A DNA stretch of 64,000 nucleotides from Minisyncoccota bacterium (GCA_003173865.1 PJMF01000012.1:8908-72907); one strand, 5' to 3'; numbered from the stretch's first letter, positions 5,731-25,909 are shown. The notes: a model not told the origin generated them from the sequence alone. Numbers and translations are program-made.

Positions 5731-6899
5731 TGAAAATCAATCAATTGAAGTTTGCTTTTCTTTGCTATTTTGTGGTTTTGATTTTTTACACCGTTTTTTC
5801 ATTTTCATTAACTGATCCAAATCTCGTTTTGCTTTCATGGGGACCATACTGGAACTTTCAACAGTTCATGTGGCATACTTTTTTTGAGAATCACGTGTTA
5901 TTAAGCTGGACATATGCAGCTCTTATCACAGCACTGTTCGGGGCGTATGCGTGGATCATCAAAGCGTCTTCAAACAGTACATTGTTGATGAACTGGAAGC
6001 TTGCGGGATGTTATTTTTTGCTTCTTCTCCCCCTCTTTTTTTCATACAATGCGCTTTCTTATGATGTGTTTAATTATATTTTTAATGCCAAAATGGTCTT
6101 GATTTATCATGCTAATCCTTATGTTCAAGTTGCTTTAGATTTTGCTCAAGATCCATGGGTACGCTTCATGCATAACACGCACACGACTGCTCCTTATGGA
6201 TATGGCTGGACTCTCTTTTCGCTGCTCCCGTTTGAACTAGGGTTTGGAAAGTTTGTGCCAACTTGGCTGATGTTTCGTTTCTTTAGTGTACTCAGTATTT
6301 TTTTACTGTATGTATGTATTAGCTTTGCAAAGAAAAAAGAATTTTTGGTTCGAGAGTTTGTCATTTTGTTCCTCAATCCGTTGTTTGTTCTCGAAGTGGT
6401 CAGCAATGCACATAACGATTTGTGGATGATGGTGCCTGCGCTCTATGCGGTTGCAATGGTATTTGACCACAAAAAAGGATCTCTAAAAAAATGTCTCATC
6501 GCAACTGCGTTAATGATTTTTTCGATCTCAATGAAGTTTGCATCTTTGCTTTTACTGCCTTTAATCGGAGCGAGTTTTCATCACAAAGTGAAACAATACT
6601 GGCCAGAAATTGCTGCCCTTCTCATGTTTGTTCTTCTGCTCACCAACCGCTCACAACAATTTCATCCTTGGTATTTGACGTGGGTACTTGTGTGGTTTCC
6701 ATTTATAAAAAACAAATTACTTAAACAAAGTATTTTAGTGCTTTCCGTGAGTTCGCTCTTTCGTTACGTACCATGGATGTGGAATGGTTACTTTTCTGAC
6801 CAAATTATTTTGCAACAAAAAATGATTACGTGGATTCCCCTTGTTCTCTTTTTGATAGTAATGAGTGTAAATAGCTTATGGAAAAAATTATTGAAATGA
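5730..6899 (+). CDS. Polytopic membrane protein, possible GT-C glycosyltransferase
   Basis: Ten or more hydrophobic helices. ATG 5730 overlaps stop TGA 5728-5730. No motif confidently assigned. Confidence 0.4.
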   Translation: MKINQLKFAFLCYFVVLIFYTVFSFSLTDPNLVLLSWGPYWNFQQFMWHTFFENHVLLSWTYAALITALFGAYAWIIKASSNSTLLMNWKLAGCYFLLLLPLFFSYNALSYDVFNYIFNAKMVLIYHANPYVQVALDFAQDPWVRFMHNTHTTAPYGYGWTLFSLLPFELGFGKFVPTWLMFRFFSVLSIFLLYVCISFAKKKEFLVREFVILFLNPLFVLEVVSNAHNDLWMMVPALYAVAMVFDHKKGSLKKCLIATALMIFSISMKFASLLLLPLIGASFHHKVKQYWPEIAALLMFVLLLTNRSQQFHPWYLTWVLVWFPFIKNKLLKQSILVLSVSSLFRYVPWMWNGYFSDQIILQQKMITWIPLVLFLIVMSVNSLWKKLLK

Positions 6900-8440
6900 A
6901 AAAAAGAAATTTTTTACTTCCAGCAACACTTGCTCTTTTTTACCTAGCAACTCATTTGTTAGGCTTGTTGAAGCTACCTGTTTTTGCAGATGAGTCAATT
7001 TATATTCGTTGGGCTCAATTAATTACAGATGACTGGAAACAGTATCTTTTTTTTCCTTTAAATGACGGCAAGACGCCCTTATTTATTTGGACATTGGTCC
7101 CTTTTCAACAGTTTTTTGCGTATCCATTACTCACCGCACGCTTGGTTTCAGTGGTGGTTGGTTTAGTGCAAGTATTTGTCATTGGTCTCATTATCAAAAA
7201 CTTGGGCGGTCGTTCAAAAACCCAGTGGCTAGGCATGCTCTGGACGACGATTTTACCTTTTTGGTACTTCGCCCATCGTATCGCACTCATGGATGGCATG
7301 TTGACACTGTGGATTTCACTTTTTGTTCTTGGTGTCATTAAAATCACACAACAAAGAAAAATCACATTGAATTGGATTTTTTTTAGCGGAGTTTTCTTAG
7401 GACTTGGACTGTGGACAAAACTGCCCACTTTATTTGCGGTGCCGATCGTCTTTGTCTGGCCATTGAGACAAAAAGAAGTTCGTTTAAAGTTTTACTTCCA
7501 TGCAGTTATTCCCCAAATTATTGCAATTTGTATTGGAATGTTTTTGTTTGCGACGCTACGAATAACTCCATCTTTTGGTCAGTTATTTCATCGTGGAAAT
7601 GATTTTACGTATCCCATCGCAGATGTTTTACTTCATGGCAAATGGATGACCACACTGGGAAATATTCCTACATATTTAACTTTTTTTGTAGCCTACTTGA
7701 CACCAGCCATTTTAATCTTAAGTTTTGCGGGTCTTTTTTCTCGACAATTTCGACGTACTACTGTCTGTTTGTTACTCTCTGCGGCTCTTTTTTGTTTCCC
7801 AATCGTGTTGTTTGGGAAGGTCGTTTATCCTCGCTACTTATTTCCGGCGTCGATATTTTTCACTTCAGCGGCAGCCTTGGCTTTTCAGGGGTGGTATGAC
7901 CGATACTTTAGTGCTCGTACCAATCAAAATATTCAGTCCAAGTTCATCGTTGGCTTAATTTTAGCGTTACTGCTCGCACAAACGGTAGTTTCGTCACTCC
8001 AATTTATGACATTCGCGGCCACAGATCCAAATTCTTTACCCCTAGTAGCTGCCGACCGAGAGCAGTACCTCGAAGAGTGGTCGTCAGGTCATGGCATCCT
8101 TGAAACTGTCGCCTTCATTCAGCAACAAGCACAAAACCACAGCATTGCCGTCGCTACAGAAGGTCGGTTTGGCACGTTGCCCGACGGTTTACTTCTCTAT
8201 TTTCATCACCAAGACGTTCATAACATTTATATCGAAGGAACTGGCGAGTATGCCCCAGTCAAAGATATTCCCGATTTTTTTACTCAGCGAGCCAAAAGCT
8301 TTCAGCAAAGCATTTTAGTTGTGAACTCACATCGCATGGGTATTACTTTGCCGAAGCAAAATCTTCTTGCAGAGTACTGCCGTCCTGATCACGCTCCTTG
8401 CTTGCAAATTTGGGACATTACTTCACTCGTCAAAAAATAA
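6878..8440 (+). CDS. GT-C membrane glycosyltransferase (ArnT/PMT-like)
   Basis: N-terminal polytopic membrane domain followed by a soluble C-terminal domain, the usual PMT/ArnT architecture. Alternative ATG at 6896 gives an ATGA overlap with the previous stop. Confidence 0.55.
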   Translation: MEKIIEMKKRNFLLPATLALFYLATHLLGLLKLPVFADESIYIRWAQLITDDWKQYLFFPLNDGKTPLFIWTLVPFQQFFAYPLLTARLVSVVVGLVQVFVIGLIIKNLGGRSKTQWLGMLWTTILPFWYFAHRIALMDGMLTLWISLFVLGVIKITQQRKITLNWIFFSGVFLGLGLWTKLPTLFAVPIVFVWPLRQKEVRLKFYFHAVIPQIIAICIGMFLFATLRITPSFGQLFHRGNDFTYPIADVLLHGKWMTTLGNIPTYLTFFVAYLTPAILILSFAGLFSRQFRRTTVCLLLSAALFCFPIVLFGKVVYPRYLFPASIFFTSAAALAFQGWYDRYFSARTNQNIQSKFIVGLILALLLAQTVVSSLQFMTFAATDPNSLPLVAADREQYLEEWSSGHGILETVAFIQQQAQNHSIAVATEGRFGTLPDGLLLYFHHQDVHNIYIEGTGEYAPVKDIPDFFTQRAKSFQQSILVVNSHRMGITLPKQNLLAEYCRPDHAPCLQIWDITSLVKK

Positions 8441-9382: not shown

Positions 9383-10243
9383 ATGGACTCTTCGTCGCTC
9401 AAAAACTTTATTCAAAATATTACTGAAAAAATGCTTGAAGCAGGCGAAATTGCAGAAAAGTTTCAAGGCAAGGTTGCAAATATAAAAAAAGAAGTCGATC
9501 TCGATAATAATGCTCCTCAAAGAATTAAAGATCGAAATCAAGCAAAAACCGAGATTGATGAAAAAGTTCAAGAAATGCTTTTAGAGTGTGTGAAAGACAC
9601 TCTTGGGATCAACAATATTAGAATTGATGCCGAAGAAGATACAGCATTGAAGCAACTTTTTCCAAATGAAGCAGCTCAAGTAACCATCGTGATTGATCCT
9701 ATTGATGGTACCTTAGAGTATCTGAATGGAAGTGATAGGTATTCGATTAACGTTGGGGTCGTTTCTCATGGAGAAATGCTTGCCGCTTTAATTTATTTTC
9801 CGAAACTGAAAAAACTTTATTTCTTGGATAATCAAAAAACTTCCTACGAAGTAGCCTATACTTCTAGTCTAGAAGTTAAAGATAAAAAAGTTCTAAAAGG
9901 AAATGAACAACCGCAAAGAAATAAAGTATATGTAAATAATCGGGTGGCCACAGATTTAGTAGACAACTTAGAAAAAGCAGATTTTTCAGTAATTCAGGAT
10001 GATGGAGAAGTATCTTGGCCAGATGCGCTTTTAAAATGCATTTCTGGTGAATACTTTGCGAGTATTTTTCATAGTCCTCAAACAAGGGATGTTTTACTTG
10101 GAGCCTTAATTGAAAACTTAGAAAATGGATGGAAAGTGGACTGGGAAGGAAATAAAATTACTTGGCCAAATGGAGGGAGAATTCCTAGAGTGATTTTTGG
10201 TACAGGAGCTCTTCCGCGAGAAATTTTTGAGAGTTTAGAGTAA
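9383..10243 (+). CDS. Inositol monophosphatase / CysQ-like phosphatase family protein
   Basis: DPIDGT motif and overall length fit the IMPase family. ATG at 9383; the 9359 start in the ORF track is a TTG. Confidence 0.65.
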   Translation: MDSSSLKNFIQNITEKMLEAGEIAEKFQGKVANIKKEVDLDNNAPQRIKDRNQAKTEIDEKVQEMLLECVKDTLGINNIRIDAEEDTALKQLFPNEAAQVTIVIDPIDGTLEYLNGSDRYSINVGVVSHGEMLAALIYFPKLKKLYFLDNQKTSYEVAYTSSLEVKDKKVLKGNEQPQRNKVYVNNRVATDLVDNLEKADFSVIQDDGEVSWPDALLKCISGEYFASIFHSPQTRDVLLGALIENLENGWKVDWEGNKITWPNGGRIPRVIFGTGALPREIFESLE

Positions 10244-13512: not shown

Positions 13513-14346
13513 ATGCGTTACTTAATCATTAATGCTGACGACTTTGGCATGAGCCAAGAGATTAACGAAGGCATCAAGCGGGGCATCGAAGCAGGTGTGA
13601 TCACCAGCGTTTCGGTCATGGTGAACATGCCATTTGCCGATGACGCAATCAAGTTTTTAAAAAAACATCCTGAAGTCTCTGTTGGATTACATTTTAATAT
13701 CACCGAAGGATCCCCAACTCTCAAACCAAAACAAATTACGACTTTGCTGAGGGAAGATAATAGTTATTTTCACTGGAGTTCTTTAGTTATTAAATTGCTG
13801 CTCGGTCAATGTTCTTTAGACGAAATTAATCTGGTGCTCATCAGTCAATATCGGAAGTTGAAGAGTACCGGCCTGAAAATTACACATTTAGATAGTCATC
13901 ATCACATTCATCTATTTCCCACCATTTTTAAAGGATTTGTTGACTTTGCGCATCGGGAAAAAGTAGCTGCACTGCGGTCGCGCCGATTTAATCTCTGGAA
14001 CTTAACGAGCAGTCTACGTAAAGGAATCACTTCCAAACAATGTTTAATTTTATCGATGTGTCTTTTTAATAATTTCTTTACTAAGAACTCGCTTGACCTC
14101 TCCGGCGGAAATAGCATCTACGACTTAAACTGGGATCCTAATCTCACTGAAGCAAAGTTTCTCCGCATTATCCAAAACTTCGGCCCTGGTGTAACGGAAA
14201 TCATTTGTCATCCTGCCATCGCAAGTAAAGATGGCAACGAAAAGTTTTTACGACCCAGAGAACGTGGGCTTAACTTACTGCTTAGTCCAGCCTTTTTAGC
14301 AGAGTTGAAAAAAAATAAAATCAAGTTAATTTCTCGAAACGCCTAG
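13513..14346 (+). CDS. YdjC/ChbG-family carbohydrate deacetylase
   Basis: N-terminus LIINADDFGMSQEINEGI is the hallmark of the YdjC family. Confidence 0.8.
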   Translation: MRYLIINADDFGMSQEINEGIKRGIEAGVITSVSVMVNMPFADDAIKFLKKHPEVSVGLHFNITEGSPTLKPKQITTLLREDNSYFHWSSLVIKLLLGQCSLDEINLVLISQYRKLKSTGLKITHLDSHHHIHLFPTIFKGFVDFAHREKVAALRSRRFNLWNLTSSLRKGITSKQCLILSMCLFNNFFTKNSLDLSGGNSIYDLNWDPNLTEAKFLRIIQNFGPGVTEIICHPAIASKDGNEKFLRPRERGLNLLLSPAFLAELKKNKIKLISRNA

Positions 14347-14349
14347 ACT

Positions 14350-15876
14350 CTATACAAATCCTGGAAAGTAATCTTTTTTAATCCGCTGACGCTGTACCCC
14401 CATACCTAATAAAACACTTTCGTACGCTTCAACCATTGCGTGCGGACCTGAAAGATAAAAAAATCGCTCAGCAAAATCGGGAACTTCTTCTTTAATCATG
14501 GCGTCATTAATTCTCCCCACTTTTCCTTTCCAATCTTTTGGAACAGTTTCCAAATCAGTTAAGGTATAAACAACTTTAATGCCCAGTTGGGTTTCAGCTT
14601 GAGAAAATACGTCACTATACGCAATCTCTTTTGCTTCTTTATTCGCATAAAAAAGAATGATTGGCCGCGGTTCGTTTTTATCAAGTAGGTGCTTCAACAT
14701 GCTTCGAAATGGTGTTACTCCGATACCACCAGCGATAAAGACGCATTTTTGCTGCGGATTTTCGGGCAGTGTAAAGTCTCCCGAAAGTTGAGCCCCAACG
14801 ATCAGAGTGTTTTCGTTCATTTGCGACATTGCCTTTTTATATGAACTGCCTTTAGGATAAAACTTGACTCCTAAGTGAATCATGTCTTCACTGGGTGAAG
14901 ATGCAATCGTGAAGTAACGGCGATTTCCTCGATCGTCAGAACGCCGGTGAGGCAACGTCCACTCCATGTATTGTCCCGGATTAAAAACAAAATTTTTAGG
15001 TCTCTCAAATTGAAAATCCACTACGTCATCCCCATACTTCACCTGATTTTTAAGCTGCAACATTAATTTAAATTTGGGACTCACAAAATAAGAAAAAATA
15101 TTTCCGATTCCCAGCGCAACTTCCGGCGTTGAGTAAAATTGGGCGATATGAATTTGCGGCGCGAACAAAAAACCAACCAATGCTCCGTAGATCATCTGCA
15201 GTTTTTGAGTGGGAGGTGTCGTCAACGGCTCTGTTAACATGACAAAGGCCAAGAAAAAAAGTGGCGAGTCAAGTGCAACTGTTTTTACGGTTGTCATGAC
15301 GTTTCCACCACTCAGCAAAGTTAAACCAAATATAGTAGCTATCGCGAAAACAAAAAAAGCTGCCACCAACCGAGCGCGACGCATTTTTCGTATTAACAGT
15401 GCTCCTCCAATAATCACAAATGGAGCAAGTAACGCTGTTCCTATCCACCAGCTTGCCGCAACATTGAGCCCAAAAGAAATCAACACCACTCCCACCACGA
15501 CGGGATTAAAAAAATGCTTTTTATGGAAAGCAAAAATATACTTAGAGGCCATCGTCAAGATAGAGGCCCAAAAAAGCACCGGCACTTCAGATATATTTTT
15601 GGCGGGATCAAGAATTAAAACGAGTATCAGCGCCGAAATAAACACCGACTCCACGTTAGTGGGCGCCGAAAAAATCATCGCGAAAATCTCATTTACCAGC
15701 CAGCACACCACTACAATAAATTCAGCTGACAGCAGCAACGAAAGAGCTGAAAAAGGCATAAGGCCAAAAAGAGCAAAAATAAAGGCGATGATCACGAGGA
15801 CAATTAAGTAATACAAAACCAAACGATACATCGTAATGAAGTTCAAAAAGTTATCGATTTTTTCCAGTACGTTCAT
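14350..15876 (-). CDS. Membrane-bound FAD/NAD(P)-binding oxidoreductase (N-terminal polytopic domain fused to FNR-like module)
   Basis: About six or more N-terminal TM helices. C-terminal FNR-type motifs RRYFTIASSP (FAD binding) and GGIGVTPF (NAD(P) binding). ATG 15876 overlaps the stop of the upstream gene (ATGA). Confidence 0.65.
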   Translation of the reverse strand: MNVLEKIDNFLNFITMYRLVLYYLIVLVIIAFIFALFGLMPFSALSLLLSAEFIVVVCWLVNEIFAMIFSAPTNVESVFISALILVLILDPAKNISEVPVLFWASILTMASKYIFAFHKKHFFNPVVVGVVLISFGLNVAASWWIGTALLAPFVIIGGALLIRKMRRARLVAAFFVFAIATIFGLTLLSGGNVMTTVKTVALDSPLFFLAFVMLTEPLTTPPTQKLQMIYGALVGFLFAPQIHIAQFYSTPEVALGIGNIFSYFVSPKFKLMLQLKNQVKYGDDVVDFQFERPKNFVFNPGQYMEWTLPHRRSDDRGNRRYFTIASSPSEDMIHLGVKFYPKGSSYKKAMSQMNENTLIVGAQLSGDFTLPENPQQKCVFIAGGIGVTPFRSMLKHLLDKNEPRPIILFYANKEAKEIAYSDVFSQAETQLGIKVVYTLTDLETVPKDWKGKVGRINDAMIKEEVPDFAERFFYLSGPHAMVEAYESVLLGMGVQRQRIKKDYFPGFV

Positions 15877-16673
15877 AGCTTTGCCTTGTTCAATGCGGAC
15901 TGCAGTGAAGTGATAAATGCTTGACTCGTGGCAGTCGCACTTGTCACGATATTGACCTGTGCGCTTTGCGCTTGAATTGCTTCTTGTTGGAGGATTGGCA
16001 TTGCAGTGGCATTCAACATTCTCGAGTGATTGACCTTATCTGGATACTGTAAAAATTGAACGTTCATGATCTTGCCATTTTGAATACTAGCCTGGACTTG
16101 TACGTTTCCGTAGTATGCGTCAACCACATCTCCCACGAATAGACCATCACTATATCCACTTGCTGGCCGAGGGGTAGGTGTTGGCCACGGCGTTGGCTCA
16201 GGCGTGGGAATAACAAAGTATGTCGGGTAAGGCGTTGGTGTGGGAAACGGGGTTGGTTGAGAAGTTGGCCAAGGAGTGGCCTGATACGTAGGATATGGAG
16301 TAGATCGAGGTGTCGCCGTGGGAAATGGTGTTGAAAACGGTGTGGGGTAATACGTAGGCCGCGGAGTGTTTGTGTATGAGACGAGCCTTGGTGTCGGAAT
16401 TGGTTTCGGTGTAGGTGGAAGTGTGACTAAAACCGGAGCTCCAGATAAATCAGGGGACGGTGAAGGAGAAGAAAAAGTATCTGAAGAACTCTCGGCATCG
16501 CTTGCGTCAGAAGAATCACTCAAAGTCGGAGTTGGCGAGGGAAAGTTCGTTAAGGTATTTTGATTGGGAGTTGCAATCAGCGAAGCAGCAAGCCTACTCT
16601 CCTGCCGACGATAAAGCAAAGAATAAAAAGTAAATACTCCAAGTACACTAAAAGAAAAAATGAGTTTTTTCAT
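15873..16673 (-). CDS. Secreted/anchored FMN-binding domain protein with Pro/Thr-rich linker (flavinylation motif present)
   Basis: N-terminal signal/TM segment. Long PTP/YPT low-complexity linker. C-terminal FMN_bind-like domain (GNVQVQASIQNGKIMNVQFLQYPDK) with a VTSATATS segment matching the S/T-x-AT flavinylation site. Confidence 0.7.
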   Translation of the reverse strand: MKKLIFSFSVLGVFTFYSLLYRRQESRLAASLIATPNQNTLTNFPSPTPTLSDSSDASDAESSSDTFSSPSPSPDLSGAPVLVTLPPTPKPIPTPRLVSYTNTPRPTYYPTPFSTPFPTATPRSTPYPTYQATPWPTSQPTPFPTPTPYPTYFVIPTPEPTPWPTPTPRPASGYSDGLFVGDVVDAYYGNVQVQASIQNGKIMNVQFLQYPDKVNHSRMLNATAMPILQQEAIQAQSAQVNIVTSATATSQAFITSLQSALNKAKL

Positions 16674-16756
16674 TCGTGTAAAAAGTATATGTCATTTCGG
16701 ATTCTAGGAAAAGGAAAAGATCTAGTTGAACAAACTCTTTTTGCCGAATAGAATTG

Positions 16757-17899
16757 ATGTATATGTCTAAATCCTCTTTTTCAATCTCTGATTCTTTTAG
16801 TAAAGCGTGGGAGGCCTTTAAGTCTCATTTTGCAGATATCATGCTGGCGGGAATTGTGGTATTTTTTTGTTCGATTCTTATTGGTGTTTTGGGCAGACTT
16901 TTCTTTGGTTCTCTTCCCGCTCAAGTTATTTACCGCATTGTCAGCGCCGTTCTAAGTGCCTTTTTAAGTATCGGATTGATTAAGATTGGGCTTGGAGCTT
17001 TACGTGGAGGATCAACTGATCTTTCTCAATTTCAGCAGCCAGTAAGCAAAGCAGTGAAGTATGTCGTTGCGTCGTTCATGTTTTCAGCGGTCATGCTTCT
17101 GGGTATCATTTGTTTTATCATTCCAGGTGTGTATTTTGCGCTCCGATATCAGTTTGTATTTGTTCTTATTGCCGATAAAGATGTCGGAATCTTAGAAGCG
17201 TTTGCCATGAGTTCGCAGATGACAAAAGGTTCCAAACTTGATTTGTTTGGTTTGGCGATCATGAACTTAGTAGTAAATGTTTTGGGATTTTTCGCGCTCC
17301 TAATTGGTCTTATTGTGACTATTCCGGTAACTCAACTCGCTAAATTGGCTGCGTATCAACAATTAATACCTAAAGTTAACAAATCATTGCTCCCACAGCA
17401 AAAAAAGAATGATCAAAATATTTTCGTGCTTGTACTTCTCTTCTTGATTGTGGTTGCGTTTGCTTCTGTATTTGCGTGGAAAGCCTTTCTGCAAAATCGC
17501 CATGTTTTTCAGTCAGCAGAATCACTCGGCATCCCTACTTACCCTCCCAGCCTAAGTGCCGGTACCTCAAACCCAAGTTCAAGTACTCAACTTTTTTACA
17601 ATTGGTATCTTGCTTGTAATAAGGCTCATCTAAACTGTCTGGATAAACTAAGTTTATTTGCTGTCGATGGTAGTTTGGCTAGTCAATTTCTTCCCAAACG
17701 AGCTCTTGATCCAATTGTCTGTGCTCAAGACATGCCACGTTCAGTTGAAGTAATAGGTCAGAGTCTTTATCCAAGTGGTAATCAGGCTACTATTTACGCA
17801 AATGGAAACTTTGATAGCGGAATCGTTACTCATATGTCGGTCCTCACGACGAAAGTCAACGGGGCGTGGAAAATTCAAAACGTGACGTGTTCGAAGTAG
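16757..17899 (+). CDS. DUF975 / GP-PDE membrane-domain family protein with Cys-containing extracytoplasmic C-terminus
   Basis: Multi-TM N-terminal domain with FIIPGVYFALRYQF and ILEAFAMSSQMTKG, as in DUF975. C-terminal 130 aa are hydrophilic and contain several Cys. Confidence 0.5.
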   Translation: MYMSKSSFSISDSFSKAWEAFKSHFADIMLAGIVVFFCSILIGVLGRLFFGSLPAQVIYRIVSAVLSAFLSIGLIKIGLGALRGGSTDLSQFQQPVSKAVKYVVASFMFSAVMLLGIICFIIPGVYFALRYQFVFVLIADKDVGILEAFAMSSQMTKGSKLDLFGLAIMNLVVNVLGFFALLIGLIVTIPVTQLAKLAAYQQLIPKVNKSLLPQQKKNDQNIFVLVLLFLIVVAFASVFAWKAFLQNRHVFQSAESLGIPTYPPSLSAGTSNPSSSTQLFYNWYLACNKAHLNCLDKLSLFAVDGSLASQFLPKRALDPIVCAQDMPRSVEVIGQSLYPSGNQATIYANGNFDSGIVTHMSVLTTKVNGAWKIQNVTCSK

Positions 17900-21182: not shown

Positions 21183-22738
21183 TTAAAAATAAAGTTGACG
21201 GGCCAGTGGTACTCATCGTTTTGGATGGATGGGGTGTGCGCGAAGAAAAAAAAGATAACGGAGTTGCCCTCGCTCACACTCCTTTTTTTGATTCATTACT
21301 TGCTAAATATCCCCACACGACGCTTCATGCTTCTGGCGAACACGTCGGATTACCCGCAGGTCAAATGGGTGGCAGCGAGGTGGGACACACTACCATCGGG
21401 GCCGGAAAGGTGCAGTATCAGCAACTTGTCAAAATTAATAACGCAATTAAGTCAGGTGAATTTGCTCTAAATCCCGCTTTTCAAGAAGCATTTGCGTATA
21501 CATACACGCATCATAGCCAACTCCACATCATGGGATTACTCAGTCCAGGTGGTATTCACTCACATCAAAATCATTTTTTTGAGTTAATTAATGCAGCTCT
21601 TGCCGCGAAAGTAGAAAAAATCATTTTACATCCATTTCTGGATGGCTCGGATACCCCAAGAACTGCCGGCTCCGGGTACCTCGAGTCACTGGAAAAATAT
21701 ATTGAGACACGGCCAAGTTGTCACATTGCGACAGTGATGAGTCGTTACTTTGCAATGGATCGCAATACGAACTGGGATCGAATTCAGGTAGCTCTTGATG
21801 CAATCCAGTTTGGCAAAGCACAAAACACATACACTGGAGAAGTCAAACCTTCACGAGTTGTGAGGGATTTTTATAAAGACTCTGTCTTTGACGATCACAT
21901 GCCACCTTTAGTCTTTGGTGAACCAAACCCTTTTACGTTTCAAAAAAACGATGCCGTGATCTTTATCAACTTTCGTTCTGATCGTGCGCAGCAACTCAGT
22001 CAAAAAATTTGCGAAGTTACTGACAAACTTCAGCTTTGTTTTGTCACCATGAGTAATTACGGGAGTTCTGTAAAAGCAAAAGTTGCATTCGAAGTCGATA
22101 AAATTGAGCACACGCTTGCAAGTATTCTTTCCGCACATCATTTTACGCAAGCGCATCTGGCTGAAACTGAGAAAATTGCTCACGCAACTTTTTTTCTGAA
22201 CGGGGGTCGCGCTGAACCCTTCCCAGGCGAAGAACACGTCTTGATACCCAGTCGTAAAGACGTCGCAAGTCATGATCTCGCTCCTGAAATGAAAGCCAAA
22301 GAAATTTGTGATGCAGCACTCGAAAGATTAGATCGAAGTAATTTTCTTTTTATTAACTTTGCCAATCCAGATATGGTTGGGCACACTGCGGTTCCTCACG
22401 CAATTATCAAAGCAGTTGAAACAGTTGATCAGCAGCTGGCGCGACTGGTACCCGCGGTCATTGCAAAAAATGGCGCTTTGCTGATTATTGCCGACCACGG
22501 CAATGCAGAAGAAATGGTTGACCAAAAAACTGGGGAGCCACACACCTCGCATACTACCAACCCAGTCCCATGTATTTTTGTACACTCCAGTTTTCATCCA
22601 AAATTAAAACACCAAGATCAAGGATTAAAAGATGTCGCACCCACTATTTTGGAGTTATTTGGTATTCAAAAACCAGACATCATGACGGGGAAATCACTTT
22701 TTCTCTCCCACTACATGACCCCCAAACTCACTTCTTAA
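21179..22738 (+). CDS. gpmI: 2,3-bisphosphoglycerate-independent phosphoglycerate mutase
   Basis: VVLIVLDGWG N-terminal motif and length of about 519 aa. Start overlaps the eno stop (ATGA). Confidence 0.95.
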   Translation: MIKNKVDGPVVLIVLDGWGVREEKKDNGVALAHTPFFDSLLAKYPHTTLHASGEHVGLPAGQMGGSEVGHTTIGAGKVQYQQLVKINNAIKSGEFALNPAFQEAFAYTYTHHSQLHIMGLLSPGGIHSHQNHFFELINAALAAKVEKIILHPFLDGSDTPRTAGSGYLESLEKYIETRPSCHIATVMSRYFAMDRNTNWDRIQVALDAIQFGKAQNTYTGEVKPSRVVRDFYKDSVFDDHMPPLVFGEPNPFTFQKNDAVIFINFRSDRAQQLSQKICEVTDKLQLCFVTMSNYGSSVKAKVAFEVDKIEHTLASILSAHHFTQAHLAETEKIAHATFFLNGGRAEPFPGEEHVLIPSRKDVASHDLAPEMKAKEICDAALERLDRSNFLFINFANPDMVGHTAVPHAIIKAVETVDQQLARLVPAVIAKNGALLIIADHGNAEEMVDQKTGEPHTSHTTNPVPCIFVHSSFHPKLKHQDQGLKDVAPTILELFGIQKPDIMTGKSLFLSHYMTPKLTS

Positions 22739-23596
22739 AACGTTAACGACTCTATTTGCATAACGCGGATTATTTGCAGATTCCTTTCGAACGTTGAGTG
22801 AAGCTTCAATAATGGGTACTTGTACATTCAGCTCTTGAGCAGTTTCTACTGTCCATTGCCCTTCACCACTATGCGCGATCGTTGTGGCAATATCTTGAAG
22901 TTCAGTGCCTTGATGCAGATAACCAGACTGTAACCAACCAATTAAGCGTGACTCGATCACACTGCGATTGTTATAAACTTCACTCACTTTGAATAAATCT
23001 AAATGAAACGGTGACTCTTTGAGTACCTCAAATCCTTCTCCAATTGCTTGCATCATGCCATACTCGATGCCATTGTGCACCATTTTGACAAAATGTCCGG
23101 CGCCATTTCCCGAAAAAAATTGCAGCGCATTTGGAGCCGTGATGTCGATAAATAACTGCTTATACATTTCGAATGCATGAGCATCACCACCTATCATTAA
23201 ACACGCCCCACTCCGTGCACCTGCTGGCCCACCCGAGACACCCACATCAATAAAACGTATTCCAGCCTTTTGCAACGCAGCTGCTCGCTGCATGGTATCT
23301 TTATAAAAAGAGTTTCCTCCATCAATAATCGTGTCACCTTTGGTCAGTAAGGGCGTAATTTGGTCAATCATCTCACCCGTGACGGCGCCTGCGGGTAACA
23401 TCAGCCATATTACTCGGGGAGTTTTCAGTTGGGCAATGAGTTGTTCAATACTTTCAACTGTCACTGCACCTGCTGCTTCAACTTCTGCGCGTGGCTCGGC
23501 AGAACGATTCCATGCCACTACGTCATGCCCTTTTTCTAATACATGCAACACCATATTCTTGCCCATTTTCCCTAAACCAATATATCCAAGCTGCAT
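22694..23596 (-). CDS. gnd: 6-phosphogluconate dehydrogenase (decarboxylating), short NAD-binding form
   Basis: MQLGYIGLGKMGKNM Rossmann N-terminus and 6PGDH-like core, about 300 aa. Lies downstream of zwf on the same strand. Confidence 0.8.
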   Translation of the reverse strand: MQLGYIGLGKMGKNMVLHVLEKGHDVVAWNRSAEPRAEVEAAGAVTVESIEQLIAQLKTPRVIWLMLPAGAVTGEMIDQITPLLTKGDTIIDGGNSFYKDTMQRAAALQKAGIRFIDVGVSGGPAGARSGACLMIGGDAHAFEMYKQLFIDITAPNALQFFSGNGAGHFVKMVHNGIEYGMMQAIGEGFEVLKESPFHLDLFKVSEVYNNRSVIESRLIGWLQSGYLHQGTELQDIATTIAHSGEGQWTVETAQELNVQVPIIEASLNVRKESANNPRYANRVVNVLRSEFGGHVVGEKK

Positions 23597-23605
23597 ACCT
23601 TCCTT

Positions 23606-25075
23606 TCACATTTCAACACTTGGTTGAATCCATTGACGTTTATCTTGTTTAATTAATTGAGTAAATGAACTGGGACCCCAGCTGCCTGCTTTATATGCCT
23701 CAGGCCGAAACTTCGCTCTCATTTTGTAATCGAGGAGTGGTTGAACAAAATGCCAAGAACTTTCAATTCCATCTGAGCGTGGGAAAAGCGTTGGATCACC
23801 TTGAACTGCATCATAAATTAACTTGACATATGCTTCGACGAGTCCCATCTGAAACTCATTCCGATAACCAAACTGCATCGGGACTTCATTGAGTTGTAAA
23901 TGAAGACCTGGTTTTTTGACCTTTAAGCGAACGACGACTCCTTCGTTTGGTTGAATGCGCAAAGTAAGTACATTCCCTCTTTGCACGCGATCAAGTTCTG
24001 AAAACATTGCATTGGGCGGCTCTTTAAACTGAATTGAAATTTCTGTCACTGTACTTTCAAGACGTTTCCCTGCCCGAATATAAATAGGTACATTGCGCCA
24101 ACGGTCACTATCCACAAAACAACGCAGCGCTGCAGCTGTTTCCGTTTGCGAGTGCGGTTCGATATGATTTTCTTCTAAAAATCCTCGAACGATATTTCCG
24201 TTGACTTTTCCGGCGATATACTGACCAAACTTCACGTCACGATCAATCTGGTCCAACTCAAATGGCCGAAGATTTGCAAGTACTTCATGGCGTTTCTGTC
24301 GAACATCCTGCGCTTGCAAGCTTTTTGGCTCATCCATCAAAGTAACAGCCAGCATCTGTAGTACATGATTCTGAATCACATCCCGAATGGTCCCTGTTTG
24401 GTCATAAAAAATTTCTCGCCCATCTATGCCTAAGTTTTCGGATGCAGTAACTTGGATGTTATCGATAAAGTTGCGATGCCAAAGGTGTTCAAAGATTCCG
24501 TTTGCAAAACGAAAAACGAGTAAATTTTGAACTGTTTCTTTTGCTAAAAAATGATCGATACGAAAAATCTGGTCTTCTTTAAATACAGATGTTAGCGCCT
24601 CATCGAGTTCGTGTGCAGATGCCACGTCCGTACCAAACGGCTTTTCCAGCATGATTTTTGTCCAACCACATGGCGCTTTTCCCATTCTAGCTGCTTGGAT
24701 GTGCCGAACCGTCTGGATATACAAACTCGGCAACGTTGCAACGTACCACAGATGATTGCCGCACGTAGCAAAGCTTTCATGGAGCGAGCGAATTTGTTCA
24801 AACGTTTGGCGATGATCAACGTCCCCTGGCAAATAGTAAAGACTTTTGGCAAATTTTTTCCATTCCGACTCATCTTTTGGTTGAACGACGCTGTACACGA
24901 ATTGTTCAAACTCGTGGTGAGTCATCACTTTGCGAGAGTTTCCGACTAAATTAAAAATTTCTGGTAGTAAACCTTCTTGATGAAGTGTATACAGCGCTTT
25001 CAAAATTTTTTTCTTGGCAAGATCACCAGTCGCTCCAATCAAAAAAAGAGTAAGGGGATGTTTAATTGGCTTCAT
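23606..25075 (-). CDS. zwf: Glucose-6-phosphate 1-dehydrogenase
   Basis: LFLIGATGDLAKKKI NADP-binding motif, RIDHFLAKE and further G6PD signatures. ATG chosen at 25075 (MKPIKH) with an AGGA Shine-Dalgarno 10 nt upstream. Confidence 0.9.
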   Translation of the reverse strand: MKPIKHPLTLFLIGATGDLAKKKILKALYTLHQEGLLPEIFNLVGNSRKVMTHHEFEQFVYSVVQPKDESEWKKFAKSLYYLPGDVDHRQTFEQIRSLHESFATCGNHLWYVATLPSLYIQTVRHIQAARMGKAPCGWTKIMLEKPFGTDVASAHELDEALTSVFKEDQIFRIDHFLAKETVQNLLVFRFANGIFEHLWHRNFIDNIQVTASENLGIDGREIFYDQTGTIRDVIQNHVLQMLAVTLMDEPKSLQAQDVRQKRHEVLANLRPFELDQIDRDVKFGQYIAGKVNGNIVRGFLEENHIEPHSQTETAAALRCFVDSDRWRNVPIYIRAGKRLESTVTEISIQFKEPPNAMFSELDRVQRGNVLTLRIQPNEGVVVRLKVKKPGLHLQLNEVPMQFGYRNEFQMGLVEAYVKLIYDAVQGDPTLFPRSDGIESSWHFVQPLLDYKMRAKFRPEAYKAGSWGPSSFTQLIKQDKRQWIQPSVEM

Positions 25076-25909
25076 ATGATAAGATGTCCTAGTATTGTGA
25101 CACACTCTTCTCAATTTCGCTTTCACATTTTTTCTGCTGAAAAAGTTGCGGTCGAAGCTGCTCACTCCTTGGCGAAAATATTAACAGACTCGTTGTCTCA
25201 AAATAAATCCGTACTGCTATTACTCTCCGGCGGATCGGCAATTAAGATGTATGGATATATCTTTCAATTTTTAGAAACAGGAACTCATTTACAGCACTTG
25301 AACCTTGGCTTAGCTGACGAGCGTTTTGGCCCGTTTGGTCACCCAGATAGTAATGAGCAACAGTTACGTGATGCTGGCGTTATCAAAGCGTTTGAAGATC
25401 GAGGAGCTCACTTTTTTGGTATGTTAACTCAAGATCACCTTAATGAAAAAGAAACTGCTAAACGAGCTGCGACAATTTATCGCCGCCTTTTTGAAGAGGC
25501 AGATACAATCATTCTTTCGGCAGGAATTGGTGAAGACGGTCATACGCTCGGCTGGTTACCAACCCAAACACGTAAAGAATTTATGCACCTTTACGATTCA
25601 CCTGCAGACGTTACTTTTTATACACTCGATCCTCGCAACTCACCGAATCCGTTTCGCTCACGCTTGACACTTACACTTACAGCAGCCAAAAAAGCACATC
25701 GTATGTTTGTTTTTGCTCAGGGAAAAAATAAACGTATGGCTCTGCAGAAGTTAACACAAGAAGTAGGTCCAGTTCACACTATTCCTGCTCGAGCGCTCTT
25801 CCAAAGCCTGCATCCACTCGAAATTTGGACAGATCAGGTGGTAACAGGTAAAAAAATAAAAAACGTCGTCCCAACTCCTTCTTCAGATCTGAATGAAATA
25901 CTTCCGTGA
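25076..25909 (+). CDS. pgl: 6-phosphogluconolactonase (GlcN6P deaminase/6PGL family)
   Basis: LLLSGGS motif and 6PGL-family similarity. Divergent from zwf with start codons abutting (catatg). The start is uncertain: 25058 or a later non-ATG start are possible. Confidence 0.65.
   Translation: MIRCPSIVTHSSQFRFHIFSAEKVAVEAAHSLAKILTDSLSQNKSVLLLLSGGSAIKMYGYIFQFLETGTHLQHLNLGLADERFGPFGHPDSNEQQLRDAGVIKAFEDRGAHFFGMLTQDHLNEKETAKRAATIYRRLFEEADTIILSAGIGEDGHTLGWLPTQTRKEFMHLYDSPADVTFYTLDPRNSPNPFRSRLTLTLTAAKKAHRMFVFAQGKNKRMALQKLTQEVGPVHTIPARALFQSLHPLEIWTDQVVTGKKIKNVVPTPSSDLNEILP

Follow-up and report, generated by a model that had tools for sequence, protein, structure and literature searches.

A probable NQR/RNF-like gene pair with a long-tethered FMN-binding partner and no linked ApbE gene in a Minisyncoccota bacterium

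What is called the NQR/RNF-like system has been defined by an N-terminal membrane domain resembling NqrB and RnfD joined to a C-terminal PF00175 domain and encoded in flavinylation gene clusters (Meheust 2021, eLife, PMC8238504), and it has been found mainly in Actinobacteria and in bacteria of the Candidate Phyla Radiation (CPR) (Meheust 2021, PMC8238504; Huang 2024, PMC11334425). Its proposed function is to deliver electrons from reduced nicotinamide dinucleotides (NAD(P)H) to an extracytosolic, covalently bound flavin mononucleotide (FMN) (PMC8238504, PMC10979944/PMC11334425). The flavinylation site of NqrB and RnfD is not conserved in its membrane subunit, and in a model of the Ktedonobacter racemifer complex the flavoprotein partner lies outside, its covalent FMN being suggested to sample the vacated flavin pocket (Huang 2024, PMC10979944/PMC11334425). 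Here we analyze a two-gene flavin module in a stretch of 64,000 nucleotides (hereafter the window) from a Minisyncoccota bacterium (GCA_003173865.1, PJMF01000012.1:8908-72907), and we conclude that the pair is probably a member of this published system, a cut-down relative of Na+-NQR and RNF. An earlier note on the same DNA had claimed that, through this pair, cytosolic NAD(P)H could deliver its reducing equivalents to a flavin outside the cytoplasm, a claim that matches the published proposal (PMC8238504, PMC10979944) and is supported by every domain-level test that we ran.

Both genes are intact open reading frames (ORFs) on the minus strand. The first (15873..16673 (-)) encodes an NqrC/RnfG-like subunit of 266 aa composed of an anchor, a linker and a C-terminal FMN_bind domain, and the second (14350..15876 (-)) encodes a 508-aa fusion of an NqrB/RnfD-like membrane domain with an FNR-type reductase. 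As the earlier note had stated, stop and start overlap: direct reading of the sequence gave ATGA at 15873-15876, in which the ATG of the fusion gene shares bases with the TGA of the FMN-binding gene. The fusion protein has >7000 homologs, the best 120 of which, itself excluded, are 475-518 aa long and 55-63% identical to it, and these thousands of homologs, with a best 120 of matching length, indicate that the features described did not arise by chance. A profile search (E <= 1e-30) grouped the family into 558 clusters at 50% identity, compared with 127 gene clusters in the original survey (PMC8238504); the family is larger than first reported partly because many members, including this one, score below the PF03116 cutoff. 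The 508-aa protein keeps every one of the 90-odd positions at which an alignment of 27 family sequences shows no variation, and the system therefore looks functional.

The membrane domain (residues 1-268, 15073..15876 (-)), for which ten helices and an N-in/C-in topology are predicted, had been of no family that the earlier note could recognize, a statement that has to be revised since fold search, hhalign and PF03116 all lead to NqrB/RnfD. Because a fold search with the full-length model was dominated by matches to the FNR domain, residues 1-272 were modeled separately with AlphaFold (pLDDT 81.7, pTM 0.80, ten helices), and each of the best 15 Foldseek matches of this model in the PDB was a chain of RnfD or NqrB (probability 1.00, TMq 0.54-0.64). 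The next matches, with far worse E-values, were urea transporters, which are distant relatives within the ammonium/urea transporter fold that includes NqrB and RnfD (PMC12174285). Pfam PF03116 (NQR2_RnfD_RnfE) scored 27.0 bits, just below its cutoff of 27.7, which about half of the best 120 homologs pass, and a sequence-only PDB search with the membrane-domain profile returned a weak RnfD match alone (8ahx_D, E 0.14). Alignment to E. coli RsxD by hhalign gave 87% probability over residues 159-261 and included the conserved T-[D/E]-P-x-T motif, of which T-[D/E]-P is invariant as T215-E-P in the family. With the membrane domain identified as NqrB/RnfD-like, the system is not new and falls into the published NQR/RNF-like class.

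In the global hhalign alignment, RsxD residues ~142-220, a loop of ~75 residues with the covalent-FMN site D181-G-I-S-Q-A-T187, form a gap opposite a short outward loop of 13 residues (138-150, NVAASWWIGTALL, 15427..15465 (-)). In this NqrB/RnfD homolog the loop with its own flavinylated Thr has been lost, in agreement with the published description of the system. In the loops of 27 homologs, Lys and Arg counted together come to 7.7 on the presumed inside and to 1.1 on the presumed outside; these charges give the N-in/C-in orientation, which places loop 138-150 outside and the FNR module in the cytoplasm, the side on which the earlier note had put it.

The reductase half of the fusion protein consists of a putative flavin adenine dinucleotide (FAD)-binding beta-barrel (residues ~271-365 with R319-R-Y-F-T-I-A-S-S-P, 14782..15066 (-)), recognized by profile and Foldseek, and a predicted NAD(P)H-binding Rossmann domain (residues ~378-508 with G383-G-I-G-V-T-P-F, 14353..14745 (-)), recognized by Pfam NAD_binding_1. 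The match to NAD_binding_1 (PF00175) spans residues 380-486 with 72 bits (E 7.5e-20), whereas FAD_binding_6 (17.1 bits) and FAD_binding_8 (20.6 bits) both stayed below their Pfam cutoffs, the barrel being too diverged. Thus the nucleotide-binding part of the FNR module claimed in the earlier note was found directly, its FAD_binding_6 part was sub-threshold, and the module as a whole was recovered by profile and fold. The family profile matched FNR-type reductases in the PDB over positions 266-492 (E 6e-15; b5 reductase, NqrF, flavohemoglobin), with E-values down to 3e-13 for the FAD/NAD domain of NqrF, and the full-length model reached TM-scores of up to 0.82 with flavin reductases and NqrF in Foldseek.

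The weak Pfam signals for FAD_binding_8 and NAD_binding_6 (20-21 bits), as well as the NOX structures among the fold matches, would fit a bis-heme reductase of the NOX/ferric-reductase type, but the NOX structures matched through the FNR module only and the membrane domain folds as RnfD/NqrB. Instead of the six helices and four conserved His of such bis-heme enzymes, it contains 3 His in 270 residues (118, 121 and 243), of which one, H121, is invariant and H243 is conserved in at least 90% of the family alignment. We rejected this candidate, and the earlier note had been right to take the scarcity of His as a sign that the domain is probably not a bis-heme ferric reductase. The canonical six-subunit RNF/Na+-NQR complex was rejected as well: when the six-frame translated window was searched by phmmer with RsxA, B, C, E and G of E. 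coli as queries, a single-sequence search of limited sensitivity, no RnfA, B, C, E or G came out better than E 0.15, and the flavinylation loop of NqrB is missing. We consider either identity, a NOX-type reductase or part of a canonical RNF/NQR complex, extremely improbable for the pair.

What the pair shares with Na+-NQR and RNF is the RnfD/NqrB fold (TMq <=0.64), an FMN_bind domain attached to one N-terminal helix as in NqrC/RnfG, and an NqrF-like FNR module. Two of the six subunits have counterparts here, there being no NqrA/RnfC, NqrD/E (RnfA/E) or RnfB, and the reductase has no 2Fe-2S domain, just as the membrane subunit has no covalent-FMN loop. The same parts and electron path might nevertheless work as an ion-pumping mini-NQR, in which flow through the NqrB-like domain would be coupled to Na+/H+ export and energy conserved. 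The cation path proposed for NQR and for some RNF complexes is NqrB/RnfD, which belongs to the ammonium/urea transporter fold (PMC12174285); urea transporters came next in our fold search, and the full 10-helix core and the invariant T215-E-P are kept. In NQR and RNF, however, coupling is believed to require the NqrD/E (RnfA/E) switch together with an NqrC that moves between two partners (PMC12174285), while no RnfA, B, C, E or G homolog was found by phmmer in the window and none figures in the published two-gene definition; the driving force, moreover, would hinge on the acceptor. An ion pump is thus an unlikely reading of the pair.

The 266-aa partner begins with MKK followed by a hydrophobic signal anchor (residues 4-21, 16611..16664 (-), mean Kyte-Doolittle hydropathy 2.03), and both this hydropathy and the intact ORF agree with the signal-anchored protein predicted at 15873-16673. 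Between anchor and domain extends a Pro/Thr/Ser-rich linker (residues 22-172, 16158..16610 (-)), whose composition (39 Pro, 28 Thr and 20 Ser) and length of ~150 residues verify the long Pro/Thr-rich linker that the earlier note had claimed. At 151 aa it has about four times the usual family length, the linkers of the 114 closest full-length homologs reaching 52 aa at most (median 39). A recent origin of the linker from DNA tandem repeats was rejected, the sole repeat being one of 12 nt in 2.5 copies.

The C-terminal FMN_bind domain (residues 187-262, 15888..16115 (-)) covers positions 2-77 of the 77 in Pfam PF04205 and scored 29.1 bits (cutoff 22, E 1.6e-6) with Pfam and 175 bits with a family-built FMN_bind hidden Markov model (HMM). 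It also matched the solved FMN-binding domain 8p2a (E 1.1e-12), so that the FMN_bind fold assigned by the earlier note holds, and it is 57-67% identical to its relatives overall (57-62% to the FMN_bind proteins of locus L001). The multi-flavinylated proteins represented by PDB 8p2a (Tong et al. 2023, PMC10339131) are the closest solved FMN_bind relatives, with the acceptor Thr in register; they carry 3-4 tandem FMN domains, in contrast to the single domain, long tether and dedicated membrane reductase found here. In some relatives the operon contains a pair of FMN_bind genes, one short and the other longer with a Pro/Thr linker, and SGAT is present in both (L001:8220-8651 and 9409-9999; L003:8961-9404 and 9401-9961).

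Pro/Thr-rich linkers are classic substrates of O-glycosylation, which makes glycosylation of the linker of the 266-aa protein conceivable. A membrane glycosyltransferase of the PMT family (protein O-mannosyltransferase-like) is encoded at 6878-8440 (+), ~8 kb from the pair, and PMT_2 genes adjoin the operon in two relatives (L087:4322-5959, L086:9494-11029). The linker might be glycosylated, although the proximity of the PMT gene could equally be a coincidence in CPR genomes.

The predicted ApbE flavinylation motif, N241-I-V-T-S-A-T247 (15933..15953 (-)), aligns with D-[IV]-[IV]-S-G-A-T of the relatives. The segment singled out by the earlier note, VTSATATS, begins at residue 243 and contains the predicted FMN acceptor Thr247; its T-S-A-T aligns on the S-G-A-T of 8p2a with the acceptor Thr in register. 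Its position as a flavin-attachment motif is thereby upheld, but the full ApbE substrate consensus, D-x-x-[S/T]-G-A-[S/T] (PMC12052999), is not matched, the Asp of position 1 being replaced by Asn and the Gly of position 5 by Ser. Among the 120 closest homologs, Asn occupies position 1 in 25 and Thr occupies position 4 in 15, the acceptor is Thr (112) or Ser (8) in all 120, and the Gly position holds Gly in 118, Arg in 2 and Ser in none. The only similar case is L039, a distant relative with ApbE that has Ser at the Gly position. Five substitutions in all (VDIVSGATDSS to VNIVTSATATS) could have been read as relaxed selection after loss of ApbE, and this reading was dropped because Asn, Thr, Ala and Thr are common in the 120 homologs and Gly-to-Ser alone is unusual. 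The motif D-G-I-S-Q-A-T187 of E. coli RsxD (L085:5143-6198, rsxD) has Gln in place of the consensus Gly, so Gly is not universally required among presumed ApbE substrates, and in mutagenesis of another ApbE substrate Gly-to-Ala left ~50% flavinylation while the effect of Asp-to-Ala was minor (PMC12052999). Taken together, the variant counts, L039, the Gln of RsxD and the residual flavinylation after Gly-to-Ala suggest that the motif is atypical yet probably still usable.

With one genome scanned per species, that of the window not among them, 80 loci were obtained (best match 58% identical); HMMs for ApbE, FMN_bind and the fusion protein were built from the scanned loci, and counts are given over 81 loci. 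The loci come from Patescibacteria, Chloroflexota (Ktedonobacteria), Alphaproteobacteria (Mesorhizobium, Kaistia), Spirochaetota and Actinobacteria (Agreia, Schumannella), and across these groups the FMN_bind and fusion genes are adjacent in ~70 of the loci. The canonical order of the family-wide operon is FMN_bind, ApbE and fusion gene, usually with overlapping stops and starts, and that of the closest relatives is ApbE, FMN_bind and fusion gene. ApbE lies within 10 kb in 68 loci and inside the operon in 6 of 6 further close relatives, which ties the FMN_bind partner to flavinylation.

ApbE is missing from the window, as the earlier note had said of the neighborhood. When the 64 kb were searched in six frames by hmmsearch with the ApbE profile of the family, filters being off, the highest score was 1.8 bits, tblastn with the ApbE of a close relative gave no match in the same 64 kb, and the idea of an ApbE pseudogene was rejected with no remnant in any frame of the window. 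Since the relatives carry ApbE inside the operon, its absence is a peculiarity of this locus and atypical of the system. The only other FMN_bind-containing loci without a nearby ApbE, L003 and L005 (both CPR-type), have canonical SGAT or SGAS motifs, which makes an unlinked transferase plausible. The most parsimonious interpretation places the transferase gene elsewhere in the genome, where it must also lie in L003 and L005.

Alternatively, the locus could be a decaying or cofactor-shifted variant that has lost both ApbE and the motif Gly, and whose partner binds flavin non-covalently or does not function. The absence of ApbE from 64 kb is indeed set against an operon ApbE in all nine close relatives examined individually, and Ser245 replaces a Gly found in 118 of 120 homologs. 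Against this, both ORFs are intact and all family-invariant residues are kept, conservation extends over Thr247 and the remainder of the domain (57-67% identity to relatives), and the SGAT/SGAS motifs of L003 and L005 indicate that an unlinked ApbE is normal in some lineages. The substitution itself has counterparts in L039, which has Ser at the Gly position plus ApbE, and in the Gln of E. coli RsxD, and Gly-to-Ala retains ~50% flavinylation (PMC12052999). Decay or a cofactor shift is therefore, in our judgment, very improbable.

The orientation of the partner was assessed from the charges flanking the anchor. In 114 homologs the net charge was +1.8 on the N-flank and +0.5 on the C-flank, with the N-flank more positive in 86 and less positive in 7, while the 266-aa protein itself showed a tie (+2/+2). 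Judged from these sequences, N-in/C-out is favored. In relatives from Spirochaetota and Peribacteria, the FMN_bind partner has a cleavable signal peptide or a lipobox.

An exported partner is, however, difficult to reconcile with the ApbE of the family. The operon ApbE of the NQR/RNF-like family is a protein of 244-260 aa whose N-terminus, MK[EQ]TRxLMGMPIT, lies at the first strand of the ApbE fold, and it has no signal peptide or lipobox in ~60 of 68 loci (for example L001:8648-9391, L002, L004, L006, L063 and L067); the ApbE genes of L082-L084 are also leaderless. Because the ApbE ATG overlaps the stop of the upstream gene, no room is left for a signal peptide or lipobox. There appears, then, to be a compartment mismatch between a leaderless ApbE and an FMN_bind substrate that looks exported, as it has a signal anchor, a lipobox (L058) or a signal peptide of the cleavable kind (L063 and L067), and in the portions of two papers on the NQR/RNF-like system reached by a term search no discussion of it turned up. 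A leaderless operon ApbE implies flavinylation before export or an unrecognized topology. This ApbE free of export signals is the most interesting loose end of the system, and it concerns the whole family more than this locus.

One such topology would be inverted, with an N-out anchor and a cytoplasmic FMN_bind domain that is flavinylated by the leaderless ApbE and relays electrons between the FNR module and the inner side of the NqrB-like domain; transport from there, outward or to a membrane acceptor, would fall to the membrane domain alone. Besides the leaderless ApbE in ~60 of 68 loci, it accords with the known flavinylation of cytoplasmic FMN_bind domains by cytoplasmic ApbE (PMC12052999) and with the equal anchor flanks (+2 each) of the 266-aa protein. 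The homologs, by contrast, are biased 86 to 7 towards N-in/C-out, partners in Spirochaetota and Peribacteria have signal peptides or a lipobox, and the loop deleted from the membrane domain was on the outer face. Pro/Thr-rich linkers, too, are typical of extracellular proteins. The published multimer model likewise puts the partner outside, and we regard the inverted arrangement as very unlikely.

With the partner presumably tethered outside, a path for the electrons can be proposed by analogy with NQR and RNF, in which RnfD/NqrB has its riboflavin close to the cytoplasmic face and its FMN close to the periplasmic face (PMC12174285). NAD(P)H would reduce the FAD of the cytoplasmic FNR module of the 508-aa protein, and the electrons would traverse the NqrB/RnfD-like domain, probably via a non-covalent flavin in the equivalent of the NqrB/RnfD riboflavin site in the inner half of the membrane. 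They would then arrive at the FMN predicted on Thr247 of the 266-aa partner; because the NqrB-like domain has lost its flavinylated loop, this FMN is thought to dock in the vacated, outward-facing pocket, and it would finally hand the electrons to an extracytoplasmic acceptor. The whole path would amount to the NqrC-to-NqrB-to-riboflavin leg in reverse, fed by an NqrF-like reductase without a 2Fe-2S domain, so that the flow expected here is outward and opposite to that leg of Na+-NQR. The analysis itself establishes the domains and their fold, the lost loop, the topology read from charges, the coupling of the genes in an operon and the retention of family-invariant residues, and from these the cofactors, the direction of flow, the covalent flavinylation and the acceptor are inferred.

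Several points weigh against this assignment and mechanism. No ApbE is present in the 64 kb, Ser245 occupies a nearly invariant Gly position at which Gly-to-Ala halves flavinylation in another substrate (PMC12052999), and an ApbE without a leader, as the family has it, is a poor match for a substrate that is exported. Support for the docking step comes from the published Ktedonobacter model, the neighboring genes in the window include none for an acceptor or a terminal reductase, and our literature search found no other paper on the NQR/RNF-like system and no experimental characterization of it.

Even so, the comparison with the published definition is close. The N-terminal NqrB/RnfD domain is present by fold and hhalign, with PF03116 marginally below its cutoff; PF00175 is present at 72 bits, with the C-terminus inside by loop charge; and the flavinylated Thr is not conserved, the RsxD loop falling into the gap opposite residues 138-150. 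As for the gene cluster (ApbE/FMN_bind within five genes, with signal peptide or lipidation), the FMN_bind half is present, with a signal anchor by hydropathy, and the ApbE half is absent. This copy thus resembles the NQR/RNF-like system in both proteins, in the absent NqrB/RnfD flavinylated Thr, in its CPR/Patescibacteria-type organism and in the proposed one-way electron flow, and it differs in having no linked ApbE, Ser for Gly, a linker of ~150 aa and a PF03116 score below the published cutoff. We therefore retain the NQR/RNF-like assignment as the probable one.

Among other described systems, the flavin-based extracellular electron transfer of Listeria (Ndh2, EetA/B, PplA, FmnB) also moves electrons from cytoplasmic NADH to an extracytoplasmic, ApbE-type covalent FMN in cells without an outer membrane. 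Its membrane machinery is unrelated, Ndh2, quinone and EetA/B standing where a single NqrB-like/FNR fusion is found here; in Listeria, the lipoprotein PplA has two FMN_bind domains and the ApbE, FmnB, is secreted.

The neighbors of the pair are of housekeeping type, namely YdjC, a NAGPA-like glycosidase, a DUF975 membrane protein, glucan phosphorylase, enolase and iPGM, further 6-phosphogluconate dehydrogenase, glucose-6-phosphate dehydrogenase, the PMT-family glycosyltransferase and a response regulator, which agrees with the remark in the earlier note that no obvious terminal reductase lies nearby. A conserved neighbor as electron acceptor was rejected, for none recurs across the related loci inspected. 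The divergent neighbor at 16754-17899 (+), of 381 aa, has a weak, sub-threshold DUF975 membrane domain followed by a C-terminal half to which no domain was assigned, and it is absent beside the pair in the related loci inspected. Genes for NADPH-producing enzymes, 6-phosphogluconate dehydrogenase-like and glucose-6-phosphate dehydrogenase (22694-25165 (-)), lie 7-9 kb from the fusion gene, with enolase and iPGM in between. On the opposite strand, a 200-aa ORF (15209-15811 (+)) lies wholly within the conserved fusion gene and is taken to be a by-product of its composition. A promoter and terminator scan of 14000-17000 gave matches no more numerous than in shuffled sequence.

In some relatives the fusion gene keeps other company. 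Membrane-anchored cupredoxins (Copper-bind / Cupredoxin_1) adjoin it at L073:4618-5049 and L055:7002-7490, and DsbA and VKOR adjoin it at L051:11545-12731; none of these three loci has an FMN_bind or ApbE gene near the fusion gene. With a cupredoxin or DsbA/VKOR in place of FMN_bind, the NqrB-like/FNR reductase may serve extracytoplasmic partners besides flavoproteins.

What sets this locus apart is the missing ApbE, the Ser at the motif Gly and the very long Pro/Thr tether; little is new in kind, but as a natural experiment the locus offers a case for judging the dependence of the system on a linked ApbE and a canonical motif. In a more speculative version, this lineage runs without a dedicated transferase, the FMN being loaded non-covalently or by an unlinked enzyme, and the tether swings the flavin between the NqrB-like pocket and acceptors past the cell wall as a long-reach electron arm, possibly ion-coupled. 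We consider this unlikely; if true, a CPR bacterium without a respiratory chain could in this way dump electrons or conserve energy.

CPR bacteria generally have no respiratory chains, and in such CPR/Patescibacteria the likely role of the NQR/RNF-like pair is the re-oxidation of NAD(P)H on an external acceptor or the provision of electrons for a reaction in the cell envelope. Should the proposed mechanism be correct, the pair would be among the simplest known transmembrane electron carriers, consisting of two proteins and flavins and dispensing with hemes, iron-sulfur clusters and quinones. The system is widespread, and in CPR bacteria it could be a main outlet for NAD(P)H, which would bear on the redox balance of episymbionts and on their interaction with hosts and minerals.

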